Positions 2,018 to 47,977 of a stretch of DNA of 58,118 nt are shown in pieces (within the stretch, counting starts at the first letter, position 1; each line of letters begins with the position of its first letter). The stretch covers positions 1 through 58,118 of IMG/VR virus record IMGVR_UViG_3300023272_000003; one strand, given 5' to 3'. The notes beneath the pieces were generated by a model, which searched no databases, was not told the origin of the DNA, and saw nothing but the letters and a program-made list of their open reading frames with translations. The translations under genes and the position numbers were made by a program. The DNA is from a virus (taxonomy: Duplodnaviria; Caudoviricetes).

Positions 2018-2659
2018 ATGAAGCAATACACCCTCAAGGAAATCTCCGAACGCACCGGCATCTCGACATCTACCCTCCGTGACTATCTGGACACCGACGA
2101 AAAGAAACGGTTTTGGGGTGTACACGGGAATCCTCCTCTATACCCTGAAAGTGCTTTGGCCTTGTTTGACAGCCTCAAAGAGCTACGCGAACAGAAGATC
2201 ATCAAGCCTCAAAACTTCCTCGAACTCAGGCACTTGATAACCGAGCACTCAGGTGAAATCGGAAAACGCGATTCGCGCTCCGGTGCGCTGGTGGTGCCCG
2301 ATTCGGAAAACGCGATTCTCGACATGACGGCAGAACGCCTTGCGGATGTGATCGCCAATGCCGTGCGGTACGCCGTATCGGAGGCACTCCAGGCCGACCG
2401 CCTACAACACGCTCCCGCGCCGCCTGATGAGATCCTGACGGCACAAGAGGTCGCGGACATCGTGAAGTGCCACCCCGGCAATATCCGGCGCTCTACGGGC
2501 CTCCTGCCGGTCAAGAGAGGTCGATACCGCGCCTCCGACGTTTACCGCTACATTCAGGCTCTGGAGCCCCAGCAGCCCCGCGTTCGCCGCCGTCCGGCCC
2601 CCGCGCTCCCACCCGCTCCAGAGCCCCCGTTACCTGCCCGTAACCAGCCGGAATCTTGA
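2018..2659 (+). CDS. MerR-like winged-HTH protein with second excisionase-like HTH
   Basis: YTLKEISERTGISTSTLRDY N-terminal HTH; ILTAQEVADIVKCHP...YRASDV C-terminal HTH_17-like segment. Confidence 0.65.
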   Translation: MKQYTLKEISERTGISTSTLRDYLDTDEKKRFWGVHGNPPLYPESALALFDSLKELREQKIIKPQNFLELRHLITEHSGEIGKRDSRSGALVVPDSENAILDMTAERLADVIANAVRYAVSEALQADRLQHAPAPPDEILTAQEVADIVKCHPGNIRRSTGLLPVKRGRYRASDVYRYIQALEPQQPRVRRRPAPALPPAPEPPLPARNQPES

Positions 2660-2726
2660 CGTAACGGGAGGTATTACGCCCTACGTCCCCCCTATATCTA
2701 AAGTTAGCGAAAATACATTATTAATG

Positions 2727-2742
2727 TGTGATATATGTCACA
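2727..2742. promoter_or_regulatory. CRP-family binding box in AT-rich intergenic patch
   Basis: TGTGA-TATATG-TCACA within TGTGTGA-N6-TCACACA. Confidence 0.55.
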
Positions 2743-2852
2743 CAGTAGTATATATCTGTGCAGGTAAAAAGCTGGTCTGGTTGGGCTGTTTTCTGCTGCG
2801 GTTGTCCGCTTGTGGGGAGCGAAATGGGGTCAAAATAGTTCGGTCGTGAGGG

Positions 2853-2885
2853 GCAAAAAGGACGGCAAACCACCGTCCTTTTTGC
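2853..2885. terminator. bidirectional intrinsic terminator
   Basis: GCAAAAAGGACGG-7nt-CCGTCCTTTTTGC. Confidence 0.85.
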
Positions 2886-2942
2886 TTGCCTGAAGCAGGC
2901 GGACTATTTTCAAAAATAATTTCATGGATTGCCAATTAACCC

Positions 2943-2976
2943 TTGACAACCTTATTGCATGGTGGTACAATAAGGT
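2943..2976 (+). promoter_or_regulatory. consensus sigma70 promoter A with inverted-repeat operator
   Basis: TTGACA-17-TACAAT; ACCTTATTG (2949-2957) and CAATAAGGT (2968-2976) inverted repeat. Confidence 0.85.
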
Positions 2977-3001
2977 ATCACAAATACGGAGGCATTGACC
3001 A

Positions 3002-3283
3002 ATGACTACTCTTCACCCGTTTGCAATCAACACCCGCGTTGTCCGCACTACTTCCGGCGATTCCTGCGGATACATCGGCATCGTCATCGACCAGGACGGT
3101 GACAGGGTTCGCGTCCAGTGGGACGCTACACACTGCCACCCGAAGGGCGTCAAGACCTGGGTGAAGTTCACGGAGGTTGACTTCGAGACAGAGGTCCTGG
3201 TCGCGGACTGTAACACCCGCAGGGCTGAGTTTCTCCAGAGGCGGGCAGCGAAGTGGTCGAAGCCTCGTTTCAGTTATCGCTGA
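3002..3283 (+). CDS. hypothetical protein (possible SH3-like beta barrel)
   Basis: GGAGG RBS after promoter A; RVV..G.V....RVRVQWD pattern. Confidence 0.7.
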   Translation: MTTLHPFAINTRVVRTTSGDSCGYIGIVIDQDGDRVRVQWDATHCHPKGVKTWVKFTEVDFETEVLVADCNTRRAEFLQRRAAKWSKPRFSYR

Positions 3284-3332
3284 GGTACCGCAGGCCAGCC
3301 GGGGGCCAACGCCCGGCAGAGAGGATAAAACT

Positions 3333-3488
3333 ATGTTCGAGGTTTATGAAGTGATCTGGCTTGCAACCGGTGGCGCAAAGTATCGGCATGTGGCGTTCCG
3401 TGACAGCATCGAAGAGGCGTGGAGTTTTGCCGACGATCTGAACAACCAACACCACAATAGCCAGTTTGAGGCGAGGCCAAAGCCATGA
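3333..3488 (+). CDS. hypothetical protein
   Basis: GAGAGGA RBS then ATG 3333. Confidence 0.6.
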   Translation: MFEVYEVIWLATGGAKYRHVAFRDSIEEAWSFADDLNNQHHNSQFEARPKP

Positions 3489-4205: not shown

Positions 4206-4483
4206 CGATTGAACAACAGCAGCAGGAACGAGCAGAGCAGAAGGCAGCGGCGATCCAGGGGTTGCGACTTTTGTTGGCCGCACTGGAGACAGATGAGAAG
4301 AGTTACGCTGTGATGACCTGCCATGGAGCCGAAAAGGACGATTACGGCATAGAGTGGGCAAAGTGGGAACTTGGCGTCGTGTGGGGCAGCGCTGCGGCTC
4401 TGTATAAGGCAGAAGACGACGACCAGCCCGGCCACGACAAGGGCGGCAGCGGCGCATGGGGCGACCCGTTCAACCAGCGATAG
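4202..4483 (+). CDS. hypothetical protein
   Basis: Coupled ORF with AAGGAG RBS. Confidence 0.6.
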   Translation: MTIEQQQQERAEQKAAAIQGLRLLLAALETDEKSYAVMTCHGAEKDDYGIEWAKWELGVVWGSAAALYKAEDDDQPGHDKGGSGAWGDPFNQR

Positions 4484-20614: not shown

Positions 20615-22036
20615 CTATCCGACACCGAGAAGTGAAAGAGAAAAGTGAGTTGTAGGCACGAGCAAGGCTATCAGGTTCGCCCCGATTTTGGTACAGCCTG
20701 CGCTGCTGGGGTGGATACCGTCCGTCGTGTCCCCGGCGGCAGTATAGGTGCCTCCCGGTCCGGTCGAAATGTCGAACAGGTCCACGTTGGCCGGATTGGT
20801 GCAGGCCGCAATCGCCGCAGGGAGTACAGCATTGTAGTTGGGGCGCAGTGTAGAGTTCCCGCCGGTAAAGGGAAGGATCTGGCAAACCCCGATTCGCGTA
20901 GTGGGATAGGCCGCTATCAGGGCGTTTAAGCAGCTTGTATAATTGGCTTGGTAGGTCGCTGTAGAGACGCTTGTCGCGATGTCGTTCACGCCGATCATCA
21001 CAATCAGGCGCTTGAAATAGCTGGTTCCAAGGCCCATGTTGTGCGGAGGCGTCGGAGGCGAATTGGTGAGGTCGTACAGCAGGTTAGCGGTGGTCCAGCT
21101 GTTGTGGCCTGCGTTGACTACCCCGACGTTGTTGGTCTGACCGAACTTGGCAACAAATCCCTGTCGGCTGTCGCCTCCGGTTCCAATATCGCCCTGCGTG
21201 ATGGAATCGCCCCAAAACCCATATTGATCGCGCGCCGCATAGGTGGTCGTGGAGAGCGTGCCGCCCACAAGCATCAGATCCGTGAGCGTAAGCAGGTGCC
21301 CTCCTGCTGTGCCGTTTATGATATGGATTTCGTAATCATGTGTTCCTGATAGCCCCGTTCCGAACGCAAACAGGGATGTTCTGCCGTCGCTTGGAAAAGT
21401 CAAGGTGCTTCCTATGACGGTGGTCCCATCTTGGACCAAAACGCAGCTACCTGCCCCTCCATAAATCCACCCGTAAATAGCAGTCGCATTCGTGGTGAAC
21501 CGCAGCGACATATCTATATTGGTGCCGTCGTAGAATGTGTAGCCGATTCCACTGAACGGAACGAAGCCTCCCTCTCGCCTGGAGTATGTGGGGAATGTGC
21601 CTGAGTTGACGTTATAGATCGTCCCGAAATTGTCAGGTGCGCTCAATACCGGAGTGGTGCCGTCCGTAATCTGTAGCCCATAATCAGTGTCGAGGTAGAA
21701 GGTAGCTCCGGTTACTCCTTGGAGGGTGACATTTGTCCCAACTGGAATATTGGTGGCAATCGTTGTGACCAGCCATGCCCCTGCGCTGGAGAGCGTTGGG
21801 CGCGTCTGCAACACACCATTGAAAAGCACATCAATGGGTTGCGTGCCGGTATTCGAGTAGATTGTTACCTGAAGGGTGTTGGTGCCACTCCCGGCTGTGA
21901 CTTTCGTGTCGATGCGGCTTTTATCACCCTGCAAGAGCGCATAATTATGCACGCCTATGTTGCCCCATGCCCACTTGCCCAAGTATCGAATGGTGGCTCC
22001 CGTTACGTCTGATGTAGGCAATGGGAATGTGGTCAT
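20615..22036 (-). CDS. SGNH/GDSL hydrolase domain protein
   Basis: GDSITQG, IGVND and DGIHPS blocks. Confidence 0.85.
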   Translation of the reverse strand: MTTFPLPTSDVTGATIRYLGKWAWGNIGVHNYALLQGDKSRIDTKVTAGSGTNTLQVTIYSNTGTQPIDVLFNGVLQTRPTLSSAGAWLVTTIATNIPVGTNVTLQGVTGATFYLDTDYGLQITDGTTPVLSAPDNFGTIYNVNSGTFPTYSRREGGFVPFSGIGYTFYDGTNIDMSLRFTTNATAIYGWIYGGAGSCVLVQDGTTVIGSTLTFPSDGRTSLFAFGTGLSGTHDYEIHIINGTAGGHLLTLTDLMLVGGTLSTTTYAARDQYGFWGDSITQGDIGTGGDSRQGFVAKFGQTNNVGVVNAGHNSWTTANLLYDLTNSPPTPPHNMGLGTSYFKRLIVMIGVNDIATSVSTATYQANYTSCLNALIAAYPTTRIGVCQILPFTGGNSTLRPNYNAVLPAAIAACTNPANVDLFDISTGPGGTYTAAGDTTDGIHPSSAGCTKIGANLIALLVPTTHFSLSLLGVG

Positions 22037-38919: not shown

Positions 38920-40407
38920 CTAGGCAGCCTGCTGGGTAGACTTGGTGCCCTGCTGGTTATCAGCACTACCCTGCACAACTACGGGCCGCTTCGCAGACTC
39001 TAAGCGCAATTGTCGCGCTTCCTGCTCGGCGTCTTCTTGGGCTTTGCGCTCCATGTACTCGCTGACCTCGTCTTCTTCCCAACCTTCGCGCTTTAGATAG
39101 AGATCAATGGGGCAGCCTGCTGTTACCGCCGCCTGTGCCGCCTGCCAGAACGCAAGGTTATCTTTGGCAATCTGCGCTTTGTCTGGTCGGCGTGGATCTC
39201 CGAATATCGCCGCTATGTTGGCGTCTTCGTTCAGATTCGCTTTCTGGTAGACGTTCGCGATCTCGGTTGCCCGATGCGCTACCGTCTGCCATGCGGCAGT
39301 AAACTTCTTGATCTGTCGCTGACACTTGCCTACCAGGGGCATCTCAGCGCGACCCAGGGCTTCACCAGAGGGCCAATCGCCTCCCGTGATGCTGTGAAGG
39401 GGTGTGCGGGTCATGCGTGAAACCGCCCGCATCTTCTCATTGTAAACCGCAATGAGTTGCGACATATCACCAGAAGGGAGGACGCCGAACCGCGCTTCAT
39501 TTGTCTCGCTACGGAGTATCTTTCCCGGCCCTATTTCTAATAGTGTCGGGTTGCCATCTTCGTCTCGAACATCACCCATGCCGGTCGCCGTCAGCATCTG
39601 GAATGCCGTCAGACGTGCCGCCGCGCTGATGTCGTACTGCAGGTCATTGATCTGGTCTTGAAAACCAATCACACCGCCTGCAAGCTCCGACACGCCATAA
39701 TTGGCTGGGCCGCGCCCACTGTTGGCAAAATGAATGATAGGGATATGAAGGGGCGAACCGTCTGCTTTCTCCCACGGCTGTATATAGTGCGATTCGCCTG
39801 GAAGAGGATACGGCGAGAACGTCAGGCCGCCCAATGCACCACCACCGCCCTCCGACACATACCGCTCTAGGCGATCCTCGTACCAGACAATACGCCGTGT
39901 CATCACCATGCCATCGATCAGGGCCTGCCAGTCCTTTACGGCATACAGAGGCTCCCCCTGCGCATCGTAGGCGATGAAGACACCGCTTTGCCCGTTCCAC
40001 CAGGGTTCCCGGTGGATACAGACGCGCTCATACTCTTCCGAGTAGGAAAGCGAGACAGCGTAGTTCCCATCACGAAGCGCCGCATAGTGCGTCTCGCCGC
40101 TCTCATCGTCCAGGTTGACCCGCGTCCACCAGTCGTCGAGCCATTCCTGAACGGCAGTGTCTTCGACTTGGAACCGGAGCAACTCCAGCCGGTCTGCGTC
40201 TTCGGCTATGATCTGGTGGCACACGTTGTCGGCAAAGTCGTTGCCCAAGAGCGCCTCAAGCAGCAACTCCTGCTCTGGCGTGAGGGTTCGCAACTGCGCG
40301 CCCAACGCGTACTCCCGATAGGTCTGGATCTTTTTCGCCTGCGTGCGCTCAAAGAACGTGCTACGGTCTATCTCTATCGCTTCGTGATCTGTTTCGATTT
40401 TCGCCAT
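38920..40407 (-). CDS. portal protein (SPP1 gp6-like)
   Basis: 495 aa after terminase; PIIHFAN, GVSEL, SGEAL motifs. Confidence 0.85.
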   Translation of the reverse strand: MAKIETDHEAIEIDRSTFFERTQAKKIQTYREYALGAQLRTLTPEQELLLEALLGNDFADNVCHQIIAEDADRLELLRFQVEDTAVQEWLDDWWTRVNLDDESGETHYAALRDGNYAVSLSYSEEYERVCIHREPWWNGQSGVFIAYDAQGEPLYAVKDWQALIDGMVMTRRIVWYEDRLERYVSEGGGGALGGLTFSPYPLPGESHYIQPWEKADGSPLHIPIIHFANSGRGPANYGVSELAGGVIGFQDQINDLQYDISAAARLTAFQMLTATGMGDVRDEDGNPTLLEIGPGKILRSETNEARFGVLPSGDMSQLIAVYNEKMRAVSRMTRTPLHSITGGDWPSGEALGRAEMPLVGKCQRQIKKFTAAWQTVAHRATEIANVYQKANLNEDANIAAIFGDPRRPDKAQIAKDNLAFWQAAQAAVTAGCPIDLYLKREGWEEDEVSEYMERKAQEDAEQEARQLRLESAKRPVVVQGSADNQQGTKSTQQAA

Positions 40408-40412
40408 AGAGA

Positions 40413-41783
40413 TTAGTATTCCGACTGCCGCCGCTGCTGCTTCGCCTTTGCGCTTCCGTAGGTGCTGACCGTGACTGTCTTGCTGCCACTCAGTTTATCG
40501 ACATAGGCCACTGCGTACCGCATCGTATCCATGCCGTGGTCGTACTCTTTTACCGGCTCTTCCTTGTTGGGTTTACCGTCAGCACCCTTTGCCCAGAGGT
40601 AGACCTCGAACTCCTGCTCGGTACAGGTTGGCTTCTTCTTATCAAGCAGTTCCTGATCGGGTTCGACCAATGCTCCCTCAAGCAAAAAAATACGGGCTTT
40701 ATTGTCGCCGGCAACCTTGAGCCTCTGTTGTACGGCCTGTATTCCGGGTGAAACTGACTTCCATGCCGCCACGGTCTGGATACCTGCGGCTTTCATCGTC
40801 GCGCGGTCCTCTGCATCATGGTCGGCTATCGTGGCTTCATAGTGCTCATTCCCAGACAGAGCGATAATCTGCTTGGTGAGGTCCGCAACGAGCCGCTGTG
40901 TCTGGTATATCTCCCTGTAGAGATACATCCGGCCATCGGGATCAATAGCCCACCACTGACAGCAGAAAGGGTTCGTGTACCCGAAGTCAATAGACCGGAT
41001 GCGCCGCCACTCTCGCGGTATCTCGAATGGCCGTCGCTTGATATGCAGTGCACGGTCAAACGCTTCGTAAACAGCGCCTTCCGCCTGTACCCACTTGCCG
41101 AGCCGCAAACGCTGATAACGTGAACCGGTCAGGCTGTCCAGAATGGCAAGCGACCGCACTCCCTGCGGGGTGATGTTCCCGGCCTCATCGAACAGCGTAG
41201 GATTGTCTTCGTGCCTGCTCTCCAGCAAGCGCAAGCCTTGCCGCGTCTTGATCCAGTGTGACGGCGGCCCAGGGTTGGCATCTCCAAACATACGCGTGTA
41301 GGGCATCACCGCGCCGCGCCCTGTACAGCGCGTCGTCAGCGTCTCCCAGTCCTCAAGAGTGAATTCCTCTGCCTGATTGACATAGAAGAAATCGCGCTCA
41401 GAAGACAACGCCTTGCCGGGATTGTCCAGGCCGATCACCCAGAGGCGCGAACCGTTCGGGTACTGGAACCACTCCGGCTTTTCGCCCCCATAGGCTTTAA
41501 TTGGGCTGTCGGGGCCGATCACACGAATAAAGGTTTTTATCGCACTTCCGACAAGGGAGGAATAGGTCTTGCGGGCCATAACTCCCTGTGCGCCAGGATA
41601 CTTCCACAACAGAGCGTCGATGTAGTTACAACAGCCCCAGGTCTTGCCGGTTTCGGCTGGGCCTGACACAATGGCTTCAAAGTCGCGAGTCTGCCACAAC
41701 TCCTTAACAGCACCGCGAGGGCAAAAACCTCCGGTCTCTCCCTCGCGCAGTTCTGCTATCTGGTATCGTGCTGTCTGAACCAT
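40413..41783 (-). CDS. terL: terminase large subunit
   Basis: GPAETGKT Walker A, ANPG, IDFGYTNP and DHGMDTMRY nuclease motifs. Confidence 0.93.
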   Translation of the reverse strand: MVQTARYQIAELREGETGGFCPRGAVKELWQTRDFEAIVSGPAETGKTWGCCNYIDALLWKYPGAQGVMARKTYSSLVGSAIKTFIRVIGPDSPIKAYGGEKPEWFQYPNGSRLWVIGLDNPGKALSSERDFFYVNQAEEFTLEDWETLTTRCTGRGAVMPYTRMFGDANPGPPSHWIKTRQGLRLLESRHEDNPTLFDEAGNITPQGVRSLAILDSLTGSRYQRLRLGKWVQAEGAVYEAFDRALHIKRRPFEIPREWRRIRSIDFGYTNPFCCQWWAIDPDGRMYLYREIYQTQRLVADLTKQIIALSGNEHYEATIADHDAEDRATMKAAGIQTVAAWKSVSPGIQAVQQRLKVAGDNKARIFLLEGALVEPDQELLDKKKPTCTEQEFEVYLWAKGADGKPNKEEPVKEYDHGMDTMRYAVAYVDKLSGSKTVTVSTYGSAKAKQQRRQSEY

Positions 41784-42278
41784 CTACAAGTCTTCCATCT
41801 TGACCCCGCTGATAATCTTCACAAACAAAGGCTTGTCGGGGTTGCCCGTGATTTCTTGGCTATCTCCCCAATCAGTCTTGCGTCGGCGTTTTAGCCATGA
41901 TTCTGCGGCGCGCCAATCGAACTCTTCAGCAGTATATTCAGTTTCCGTTACTTCTTCTAAAGCCACCGGCTCTTCGACCGTCGTGCCGTCGGGGTGTTTG
42001 ATCTTGCGAGTCTTAAAAATCGTTTTGACTGTTCGGCTTTTGTGGCCCGACTGAAAGCCGCCCGCAGCTTTTTTCATTACTTCGGAATACTCAGCCTCAC
42101 ACTGAGCTTCTGCCTGCGTAACAGCATTGCAAAACTCTGCAAAACTCTTCAACCAACGAGTGAAAGTAGAATAATCAATGCCAACACATTCAGCCGAAGC
42201 AGCACGCGAAACGCCTTGACTCAAAGCCCTTACGATAGCCGCAGCCTTTTCATCGCTATATTTAGTAGGTCTTGGCAT
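41784..42278 (-). CDS. terS: terminase small subunit
   Basis: RPTKY, HTH, DWRAAESWLKRR; directly upstream of terL. Confidence 0.8.
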   Translation of the reverse strand: MPRPTKYSDEKAAAIVRALSQGVSRAASAECVGIDYSTFTRWLKSFAEFCNAVTQAEAQCEAEYSEVMKKAAGGFQSGHKSRTVKTIFKTRKIKHPDGTTVEEPVALEEVTETEYTAEEFDWRAAESWLKRRRKTDWGDSQEITGNPDKPLFVKIISGVKMEDL

Positions 42279-42382
42279 ATTTGCACTCACAAATCAGAAG
42301 CCCGCAGGGAGCGGGGCGAGTACGCTCAACCTGCGGGCGCGTGCTGACGTGGAGGGGTCGGCACAGGGTGGGTAAGTTGTTC

Positions 42383-42518
42383 TGTGCGGGTCAGATTTGC
42401 ACTGACCGGGTGGTACCTTCCCACCGAGGTTTTCCCTCGGCATACCCCCGTAGGACGCCAACGCTGATGTACCTACCACCGTCGAAGCCGCTGTGTATCG
42501 CGAACACACCGCCGCACA
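42383..42518 (-). ncRNA. tRNA-like RNA 1
   Basis: TGTGCGG/CCGCACA 7-bp stem, D-like arm, GTCAG-TGCAAAT-CTGAC T-arm, large insert replacing anticodon arm. Confidence 0.55.
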
Positions 42519-42531
42519 AGGTTAAAAGTTG

Positions 42532-42668
42532 TCAGTAGTCCAGAATCACCGAATGGCTACGGCCCGCACTGGATGCTCCGCCAGAGTAGAGCGGGGTCGT
42601 CAACCTATGGCAGACGACTGGCGGATCGTAAGGTGATCCCCTGCGTGTCCTATCCACGCCGCTACTGA
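42532..42668 (-). ncRNA. tRNA-like RNA 2
   Basis: TCAGTAG/CTACTGA 7-bp stem, GCGTG-GATAGGA-CACGC D-like arm, TCCAG/CTGGA stem abutting acceptor. Confidence 0.5.
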
Positions 42669-42670
42669 TC

Positions 42671-42707
42671 GAAAGCAAAAGCCCCCAGCGGTTAGGCGGA
42701 GGGCTTC
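42671..42707 (-). terminator. intrinsic terminator in late leader
   Basis: AAGCCC...GGGCTTTTGCTTTC. Confidence 0.6.
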
Positions 42708-42719
42708 ACAGAAAGGGAA

Positions 42720-42800
42720 GGGGACTTAGTTCGTCTCTCACGACTACAGGAATTTCGCCTGCATGTAGCCGGTCTCAGTTAAGCCCGGCATTCCGTCCCC
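42720..42800 (-). ncRNA. multi-stem leader RNA
   Basis: GGGGAC/GTCCCC closing stem with three internal hairpins. Confidence 0.45.
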
Positions 42801-42838
42801 ACATTTTCAGCAGAGGACACGTAGTCCTCTCACCAGTA

Positions 42839-42867
42839 AGTATAGCCGGTTTTCTCATGGGATGCAA
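42839..42867 (-). promoter_or_regulatory. late promoter
   Basis: TTGCAT-17-TATACT. Confidence 0.7.
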
Positions 42868-42913
42868 TAGGTTTTATAAGCGCAATTAATTATTTTTCAG
42901 AGATTTATCAGAT

Positions 42914-43408
42914 TCAGGCCGCCTCTCGCTCCTCAATCTCCCGCAATTTGCCTTCCACCCTGCGGGAGAGGATGCGCCCCAGTTTGTTCAACTCGCGCCC
43001 TAGAGCCTGCTGGGCAGTAACATCTTCCTTTGCCATCGCGGTATCACCCCGCTCTGCAATGTAGGTGAACCGCTCTTCGATCAGGTGCGAGGGGGTGAAG
43101 TCCAGAGTCACGACCGGAGTCGCGTTCGCAATGATCTGGGCTTCTGCCGCGTCGTAAGCGTCATTCAGTCGCTTTAGGATCGATTTGCACTGTGACGCTT
43201 TGACCTGCGGCGAGATCCTGGCGCAAAGTTGCTCTACCGTGTAGGGCGGCTCATCTCCCTGCCCCCAATGGGATAGAACGAACATCTGATAATCACGCCC
43301 GGTGAACAACTTCCGCGCCAATTCCCGGCTCTGGAGTTCACAGAGGGTCGGCTTGCGCTTGCGTGGCCTCCCACCGGTTCGTAGTCGCATATTCTCATTG
43401 TCTGCCAT
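42914..43408 (-). CDS. putative late transcriptional regulator (sigma region 4-like)
   Basis: LFTGRDYQMFVLSHWG..PYTVEQL; GGRPRK hook; last early gene before late promoter. Confidence 0.5.
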   Translation of the reverse strand: MADNENMRLRTGGRPRKRKPTLCELQSRELARKLFTGRDYQMFVLSHWGQGDEPPYTVEQLCARISPQVKASQCKSILKRLNDAYDAAEAQIIANATPVVTLDFTPSHLIEERFTYIAERGDTAMAKEDVTAQQALGRELNKLGRILSRRVEGKLREIEEREAA

Positions 43409-47905: not shown

Positions 47906-47977
47906 TGCCGTGGGCGGGACTCGAACCCGCGTTGCTCAGTAAACTACCGAGTGTCCTGACCACTAGACGACCACAGT
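47906..47977 (-). tRNA. degenerate tRNA (Glu/Asp-type body, GTT at anticodon position)
   Basis: 72-nt cloverleaf with GTCTAGTGGTCAGGAC D-arm and GGGTTCGAGTCCC T-arm; A33/T37, A1-C72 mismatch, no encoded CCA. Confidence 0.65.

Follow-up and report, generated by a model that had tools for sequence, protein, structure and literature searches.

Two related, predicted self-closing RNA domains form a discrete cassette upstream of terS in an uncultured phage

What occupies the longest gap between genes in a phage genome, directly ahead of the small terminase gene? The window assessed herein is the complete virus record IMGVR_UViG_3300023272_000003 (Duplodnaviria; Caudoviricetes) of 58,118 bp, the ends of which share a 31-nt terminal repeat with the appearance of an assembly overlap. 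Between terS and the gene upstream of it, ORF-X, lie 623 nt (42291-42913) that constitute the longest gap free of open reading frames (ORFs) in this genome. An initial annotation, made from the letters alone, had placed two tandem tRNA-like RNAs of ~136 nt within it. The explanation preferred here, albeit tentatively, is of a leader-embedded cassette of two related, self-closing RNA domains that would be transcribed by read-through and probably excised as stable late RNAs. Compared with this full reading including excision, the narrower statement of a discrete structured-RNA cassette on the minus strand of the leader merits considerably more confidence. The parts of this cassette, in 5′ to 3′ order of the minus strand, are as follows:

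42532..42668, minus strand: unit 2, 137 nt, with a 5-bp D-position hairpin (loop GAUAGGA), three core hairpins and a T-like loop carrying an extra hairpin (RNAfold, alignment to the unit 1 model)
42519..42531, minus strand: spacer after unit 2, 13 nt, including CAACUU (sequence)
42383..42518, minus strand: unit 1, 136 nt, with a 17-nt hairpin, a core of two large hairpins and a T-like hairpin of 5 bp (loop UGCAAAU) (RNAfold)
42370..42382, minus strand: trailer after unit 1, 13 nt, including CAACUU; the end part of the 301-nt cassette (sequence, X2 contig)

All genes around the two units are encoded on the minus strand, and it is on this strand, shared with terS, terL and the portal gene, that the proposed tandem arrangement, with a common plan and different cores directly upstream of terS, is borne out. 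The sizes and spacing given earlier hold as well, with unit 1 (42518..42383) measuring 136 nt, unit 2 (42668..42532) 137 nt and the gap between them (42531..42519) 13 nt. Each unit begins with one strand of a 7-bp closing helix. CG comes next, then a 17-nt hairpin, AG and a core of several hairpins and, directly before the 3′ closing strand, a hairpin of 5 bp. Every element of the initial description, from terminal stem, CG linker and D-like hairpin to large insert and abutting 5-bp T-like stem, is present in the sequence. The closing helix reads TGTGCGG/CCGCACA in unit 1 and TCAGTAG/CTACTGA in unit 2, with T-like loops of TGCAAAT and of TGC, an 18-nt hairpin and GATT, respectively. The earlier description fits the minus strand; the loop TGCAAAT, for instance, appears once the plus-strand letters are reverse-complemented. 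There is no sign of a conserved protein being encoded here instead, as none of the region's four ORFs (42-88 aa) matches a Pfam family at E ≤ 1.

With regard to the limits of the cassette, two relatives are informative. The first, X2, is a 500-nt Logan contig from a second sample belonging to another study (depth 3.7). The second, G001 (locus L002), is a complete 60.7-kb phage, the closest of the relatives for which an upstream region is available; the TerL proteins share 77 % identity, and the two genomes are collinear, with 63-90 % nucleotide identity over 12 segments. In the window the cassette sits between two hairpins, T1 and H, the latter followed by a third, T2:

42671..42712, minus strand: T1, which borders the cassette on its 5′ side; a GC-rich hairpin resembling an intrinsic terminator (42707..42678, -16.5 kcal/mol), with a U-rich tract after it (sequence, folding)
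42340..42365, minus strand: hairpin H, with a C/U-rich loop; found in G001 with two compensatory pairs, and in the X2 contig (folding, comparison)
42291..42338, minus strand: T2, a terminator-like hairpin (42338..42300, -26.8 kcal/mol) with a U-rich tail, ~10 nt before terS (inner part flagged by the terminator scan)

The same scan leaves T1 unflagged because its stem is imperfect. The X2 contig joins the 42369 side directly to the 42671 side. Compared with 42288-42369 it displays one mismatch and lacks 5 nt in the T2 loop, and to 42671-42712 it is identical, with 0 differences over 42/42 nt. What it skips, 42370-42670, amounts to 301 nt and comprises unit 2, the 13-nt spacer, unit 1, the 13-nt trailer and 2 nt at the 5′ edge. 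As exactly this interval is skipped, the two units form one discrete cassette, the borders of which coincide with the predicted domain borders, and this evidence of discreteness is independent of any folding. The remainder of the contig (255 + 88 nt) is unaligned to the window at an 80 % cut-off. The T1-H-T2 module itself (~120 nt; 42288-42369 and 42671-42712) is 97-100 % identical in X2 amid these unalignable flanks; on sequence comparison, such an island of near-identity suggests either strong constraint or recent exchange. In G001, the position of the cassette is taken by ~66 nt, mostly one hairpin. The site between T1 and H thus holds 0 nt in X2, ~66 nt in G001 and 301 nt in the window phage, with T1-H-T2 being kept throughout.

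A site of this kind could also be a hypervariable spot that tolerates self-folding inserts, with the units being neutral or selfish passengers selected only as structurally harmless. The three different lengths at one site are in keeping with such an origin, as are the near-identical T1 and H/T2 flanks of X2 set within wider flanks that cannot be aligned, and the lack of any other copy of the scaffold in an IMG/VR pattern scan, in related phage DNA and in the sampled Chloroflexota genomes. The borders themselves argue the other way: there are no terminal inverted repeats and no target duplication at 42670/42370, as would be seen for an IS200/IS605 or miniature inverted-repeat transposable element-like insert, and no further copies of the units are present in the window or in the 60 loci examined. 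Neutral insertion is also at odds with the way in which sequence is conserved between the two units, and overall it is considered unlikely.

This conservation is confined to the scaffold. Of 28 independent frame positions (one strand per helix, linkers, T-like loop ends), units 1 and 2 share 19. In 2775 control pairs of unrelated frames, all fitting the same descriptor, the mean is 7.6 (sd 2.4), and the proportion reaching 19 is 0.07 %. The cores, by comparison, give no meaningful alignment and are roughly random with respect to each other. A sequence-level scaffold common to both units therefore exceeds chance, and the fact that it is far better conserved than the cores argues for selection acting upon it. 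When a covariance model was built from unit 1 alone and run over 5 kb with filters off, unit 2 was the best non-self match (12.6 bits, E 0.082) and was aligned end to end with exact borders. Within the model-fitted alignment, 4 of the 7 closing pairs, 2 of the 5 T-like pairs and 1 of the 7 D-like pairs have changed on both sides and yet are still paired. Paired cells make up 97 % of this alignment versus 31-44 % with the partners slid, although, comprising two sequences only and being biased towards the model, it illustrates pairing rather than proves it.

The folding energy of both units also exceeds chance. On the minus strand, RNAfold gives -63.4 kcal/mol for unit 1 (z -3.76, with 0/200 shuffles as good) and -56.8 kcal/mol for unit 2 (z -2.62, 1/200 shuffles as good). 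The plus strand folds more weakly (z -1.80 and -1.03 for units 1 and 2, respectively), an asymmetry that the G-U pairs of a minus-strand RNA would produce. The described domains are recovered both for each unit alone and, as independent domains, within the whole 545-nt leader. In this longer context, the closing helix of unit 2 has pair probabilities of 0.85-0.87 for 6/7 pairs and 0.76 for the outermost; that of unit 1 is ~0.59, whilst the T-like hairpins reach 0.65-1.0.

Sites for cos or pac recognition are often found directly upstream of terS, and the locus might accordingly be viewed at the DNA level, as a recognition site of this type or a regulator-binding region in which inverted repeats and binding sites would give rise to the apparent RNA folds as a by-product. 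Its location directly upstream of terS would suit such a role, as would a clustered 9-mer. This 9-mer, AGTGCAAAT, has exactly three copies in the genome, all in minus-strand orientation and within a span of 913 nt (42279-42287, 42395-42403 and 43183-43191), abutting the terS ATG, in the T-like loop of unit 1 and within ORF-X, respectively. G001 has four AGTGCA[AT]AA sites, three of them ≤1.4 kb upstream of terS. From its placement, AGTGCAAAT could be a regulator or TerS site; support for this is modest, because clustered 9-mers are not rare here, with 12 distinct examples in the window (24 over both strands). Several features sit poorly with a DNA-level element. Folding is strand-asymmetric, a sign of G-U pairs, and such pairs would be meaningless in a DNA duplex; the two units show covariation in their closing helices; and the U-tracts after T1 and T2 are found on the minus strand only. 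This alternative is consequently judged quite improbable.

How far, then, do the units resemble tRNAs? As in tRNA (RF00005), both have a 7-bp terminal helix stacked directly on a 5-bp hairpin, forming a predicted 12-bp coaxial helix, and both have a 2-nt linker leading to a 17-nt hairpin at the D position, followed by A. In unit 1 the abutting hairpin has a 7-nt loop. The T-like loops start U-G-C, have R-A at 57-58 and a G-C closing pair, such that positions 54, 56, 57 and 58 fit tRNA and 55, being G, does not. A GG is present in the D-like loop of unit 2 but not in that of unit 1, and position 8 is C in both. Unlike tRNAs, the units are double the size and are devoid of CCA after the closing helices (the next bases being GAAC and CAAC). 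They also lack an anticodon arm with a 7-nt loop and U33, in place of which other hairpins take up 84 nt in unit 1 and 67 nt in unit 2.

The bare plan was assessed with a strict descriptor that combines a 7-bp stem, in which G-U pairs may occur, with a 2-nt linker, any hairpin of 4-7 bp and, abutting the 3′ strand, a 5-bp hairpin with a 7-nt loop. Within the window its count is 29, whilst 10 dinucleotide shuffles give 18-33; over the window and related loci combined (222,105 bases), it matches at 116 places. The relaxed descriptor that is needed for unit 2, with its T-like loop insertion and a 1-3-nt linker, finds 3378 places in the same 222,105 bases, both strands included. Since these counts for the strict form lie at chance frequency, the bare tRNA-like plan does not exceed chance and does not discriminate. 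Dedicated searches proved similarly negative. ARAGORN with default settings finds 0 genes in 42200-43000, and in the whole window only a tRNA-Asn at 47906-47977, which is also the only match obtained with Infernal and Rfam at gathering scores. At E ≤ 10, Rfam returns four chance-level matches in 42200-42950, none of which belong to the tRNA clan or to a riboswitch class. Allowing introns, or searching for tmRNA (-m, also with a relaxed threshold), ARAGORN again yields 0 genes in the region. With introns and a lowered threshold combined, unit 1 is called as tRNA-Ser with a 49-nt intron and an anticodon stem mismatched at 2/5 positions, but this call is unspecific because three other overlapping calls are made in the same 801 nt.

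Other families that might be considered fare no better. For tmRNA (RF00023) there is no ARAGORN -m gene, no Rfam match and no SmpB family among the scanned ORFs; for Y RNA or YrlA there is no Rfam match, and no TROVE family among those ORFs. The statement that no Ro60 or SmpB is seen is upheld, with neither Ro60/TROVE, SmpB, RtcB nor a CCA-adding family appearing in Pfam matches for 49 ORFs at E ≤ 0.001 and for nine neighbouring ORFs at E ≤ 0.1. A search for antisense targets, by short-word BLAST of the units against the genome, yields matches of 10-16 nt only, at E ≥ 0.6. At 4287..4254 there is a similar T-like hairpin, which was dismissed because it lies opposite a plus-strand coding region. 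G001 harbours a tRNA-shaped element of its own, 104 nt in length (L002:7914-8017, plus strand, corresponding to G001 ~21531-21634), within a 147-nt gap between ORFs of 101 and 396 aa downstream of the portal gene. It has a 7-bp acceptor helix, U8-G9, a D-arm loop with GG and a canonical T arm (TTCGACT), with no normal anticodon arm. Default ARAGORN and RF00005 both miss this element, whilst relaxed ARAGORN names it tRNA-Met with a 32-nt insert at 41/42; it has no counterpart in the window.

RNase P cleaves at the 5′ end of an acceptor-like helix, and a 3′ RCCA assists it. As described in PMC4919922 (section 5.4 and its reference 206), this enzyme cuts phage regulatory RNAs and tRNA-like modules, including the P1/P7 C4 antisense precursor and the tRNA-like structures that give rise to mascRNA/menRNA. 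The units could resemble these in being a tRNA-shaped module, usable for processing, within a regulatory or leader transcript, and the C4 precursor is likewise of phage origin; they differ in having no 3′ RCCA and no sequence relation, and in being far larger than the minimal acceptor/T-arm substrate. By analogy, then, the units resemble at most tRNA-shaped processing modules such as these. The stronger proposal is of true tRNA mimics, in which an acceptor/T-arm helix and elbow would be processed by RNase P and a 3′ nuclease, perhaps with CCA addition, and the core would serve as a decoy or guide. It draws upon the stacked helices, the linker and D-position hairpin, the T-like loop residues, the GG of unit 2, the relaxed tRNA-Ser call, the canonical T arm of the G001 element and the RNase P precedents in the same source. 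Set against these are the empty default ARAGORN and Rfam searches, the unspecificity of the relaxed run, the chance frequency of the plan and the departures at positions 8, 55, the D-like loop of unit 1 and the missing CCA. Membership in tRNA or in any known tRNA mimic is unsupported, and the proposal of true mimicry, which follows the initial annotation, is regarded as rather unlikely; the decoy, guide or packaging roles put forward there are hypothetical.

Upstream of T1, the leader contains two further features, preceded by ORF-X:

42914..43408, minus strand: ORF-X, 164 aa, directly upstream of the leader (ORF call; a small phage protein family)
42839..42900, minus strand: AT-rich, promoter-like stretch with the pairs TTGCAT-17-TATACT (42867..42839) and CTGAAA-16-TATAAA (42900..42873) (a reading of the sequence)
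42713..42834, minus strand: 5′ leader domain, a hairpin and a closed three-hairpin domain (545-nt leader folded with RNAfold); not conserved in X2

The same order is found in G001, where an ORF-X homologue is followed by a promoter-like site, a folded leader, a CAACUU-type trailer, H, a terminator and terS. The promoter-like site of G001, TTGACA-19-TGTTATAAT, is at the equivalent place and is unflagged by the scan tool. Its leader folds strongly (z -4.93), and a strong hairpin with a U5 tract lies just before the G001 terS. Two P1-closed multi-helix domains, followed by a hairpin and, immediately ahead of the first gene, a terminator, are also the layout of a tandem riboswitch-like leader, in which two aptamer-like domains would sense a ligand or protein and control T2 through alternative pairing. 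A candidate for such pairing can be pointed to: GCACAG (the 3′ closing strand of unit 1 with one further base, 42376-42383) is complementary to CUGUGC of the H 5′ strand (42359-42366), such that closure of unit 1 and formation of H could be mutually exclusive. Nevertheless, known riboswitch classes give no Rfam match at gathering score or even at E ≤ 10, the X2 variant and G001 keep H and T2 whilst having no cassette, and unit 1 is ~60 nt away from T2. Riboswitch-like control is, as such, very improbable indeed.

ORF-X has a homologue in the same place in G001, albeit a weak one (24 % identity, E 7e-8). It has no Pfam or PHROG match; a word-index search returned only ORF-X itself, and a PDB sequence search gave nothing significant. 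A profile search finds 14 proteins at E ≤ 0.001, from which three long repetitive proteins (P0007, P0011 and P0014) were dropped, leaving ORF-X (P0001) and ~10 proteins of 123-157 aa. This is a previously unannotated family of small phage proteins, with the motifs RDAEIF.WHH.G, WTY..L..HF and FRITLQFG. The AlphaFold2 model of ORF-X has a mean predicted local distance difference test score of 78 and a predicted template modelling score of 0.52. Most of the leading Foldseek rows liken the four helices at its N-terminus to sigma-A region 4 (root-mean-square deviation ~2.1-2.6 Å over 61-75 residues), although these rows have E 0.15-2 only and none is at E ≤ 0.001. Structure rows from the ESM Atlas point to sigma70_r4 at TM 0.36-0.42, below the bar of that tool, and Pfam Sigma70_r4_2 matches 1/12 family members (E 0.0057). 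Judging from these models, it is plausible that ORF-X is a DNA-binding regulator of late transcription with a sigma-70-region-4-like helix-turn-helix.

Taken together with the preferred explanation of a leader-embedded cassette, these features would fit the following sequence of events. Transcription would start in the AT-rich stretch after ORF-X, and either end at T1 or read through it. Only read-through transcripts, which may be late and either antiterminated or activated, would include the cassette, and then H and T2; they would enter terS only if T2 were passed as well. Each domain is predicted to fold alone, its ends joined by the 7-bp helix stacked on the 3′ hairpin. Because each unit closes on itself in this manner, T1 and H would stay close, and the flanking T1-H-T2 module would keep its geometry. 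The domains would then probably be cut out at the closing helices, giving two stable late RNAs of ~136 nt with a common scaffold and different cores. Excision is favoured because nucleases that process tRNAs could act on a closing helix stacked on a 3′ hairpin, with the RNase P cases in PMC4919922 as precedent. A further extension, in which the units would be the first members seen of a phage RNA class with a common tRNA-shaped scaffold (closing helix, D-position hairpin and T-like hairpin) and exchangeable cores, delivered as cassettes to the late leader, freed by the tRNA-processing enzymes of the host and acting in trans late in infection (e.g. as decoys for RNA-binding or defence proteins of the host), is improbable.

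Relatives of the cassette were sought by sequence, pattern and model. The intergenic region has no blastn match ('distant' setting) in 50,697 phage records. Against 24 TerL-related IMG/VR loci, the best match is 66 nt long and 72.7 % identical (E 0.33); it is found in L002 and spans trailer and H only. With terS and ORF-X as single queries in IMG/VR, and with ORF-X family alignments, 0 confirmed loci were obtained, whilst TerL searches give 33 metagenome-contig and two genome-contig loci, none of them both closer than L002 and furnished with an upstream region. In IMG/VR, a 22-mer of T1 has 0 matches, as does the strict scaffold pattern; the trailer/H pattern has two, G001 itself and a chance match within a 993-aa ORF. 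Covariance searching, a check that the initial annotation had proposed, proved unproductive: model R2, built from both units, finds only the two units and a partial hairpin (E 0.12) in 45 related sources (352,548 bases), and has 0 matches over 151 sampled Chloroflexota genomes. BLAST of 42288-42712 against 401 Chloroflexota genomes gives one 27-nt match (E 4.3e-4 per genome), judged to be chance. No report of tRNA-like RNAs upstream of terS was found in the literature searched, a limited collection.

Several of these results weigh against the cassette being an expressed and excised pair of RNAs, and keep this explanation tentative. No RNA run was found for the window, and the two DNA runs were compared as contigs; transcription, discrete ends and processing of the cassette are accordingly putative. 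The promoter-like pairs fall below the scan threshold, with 0 promoter-like sites reported in that stretch, and T1, if efficient, would exclude polymerase from the cassette. The match of unit 2 to the unit 1 model is weak, corresponding to ~E 1 over the whole window, and is unreported with default filters over 118 kb. As no second example of the scaffold was returned by the searches above, there is no independent covariation. Finally, the X2 variant and G001 are without the cassette, which is therefore dispensable for the core function of the leader.

Downstream of the leader lie the first genes of the putative late operon, which covers packaging and structure:

42290/42278..41784, minus strand: terS, small terminase subunit (PHROG 4102/309 terminase small subunit, E 3e-14)
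41783..40413, minus strand: terL (TerL relatives found)
40407..38920, minus strand: portal gene (Pfam SPP1_portal)

The TerS proteins of three relatives (window 41784-42278, minus strand; L002:3601-4038; L004:3474-3998) can be aligned over their C-terminal 22-49 residues only, and their N-terminal DNA-binding parts are unrelated, yet the TerL proteins are 68-77 % identical. At the sequence level, this indicates modular exchange of the TerS recognition domain among the three. Two more distant relatives, L006 and L007, have a 1.3-kb stretch upstream of terS (2100-3400) with a ~60-nt periodic repeat. This large ORF-free stretch was considered as a leader and rejected, since the periodic repeat looks coding for a repetitive protein. 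The ordinary tRNA-Asn (GTT) at 47906-47977, minus strand, scores 43.2 bits and is located in the early region. As to the host, Chloroflexota can be offered as a guess, the sole hint being a 52 % TerL match on a Thermoflexales metagenome-assembled genome contig.

Comparison with known systems places the cassette as a variant of leader-embedded structured RNAs in phages, with a likeness to tRNA only in general shape. In lambdoid phages, the late leader runs from PR′ via qut to tR′, giving a short '6S' transcript unless Q allows read-through, and some Stx phages have tRNA genes within this leader. The window would share with it a candidate regulator gene, a promoter-like site and a structured non-coding leader with terminator-like hairpins ahead of the first late gene; it differs in that ORF-X weakly resembles sigma region 4 rather than Q, the first late gene is terS rather than a lysis gene, and antitermination is hypothetical here. 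The tRNA cluster of T4 includes two stable RNAs of ~80-140 nt, species 1 and 2, of unknown function, which are co-transcribed and processed like tRNAs. Those are phage-encoded stable RNAs of a size comparable to the putative RNAs of the window, but from another phage group and another genome position. The terminal helix of YrlA serves as the Ro-binding stem and not as an acceptor mimic; the likeness is one of idea only, a non-coding RNA with a tRNA-like elbow that is sometimes tandem, and the units differ from it in their lack of an Rfam match and of a Ro60/TROVE gene among the scanned ORFs.

The cassette is so far a feature of a single genome from an uncultured phage, and its general importance is unproven. 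The window phage and the X2 variant nonetheless form a natural pair for comparison with and without it. If the cassette is expressed and excised, it would present a further case of tRNA-shaped processing signals outside of tRNA genes, and would show phages adding modular, self-folding RNAs to a late leader whilst leaving its control hairpins undisturbed.

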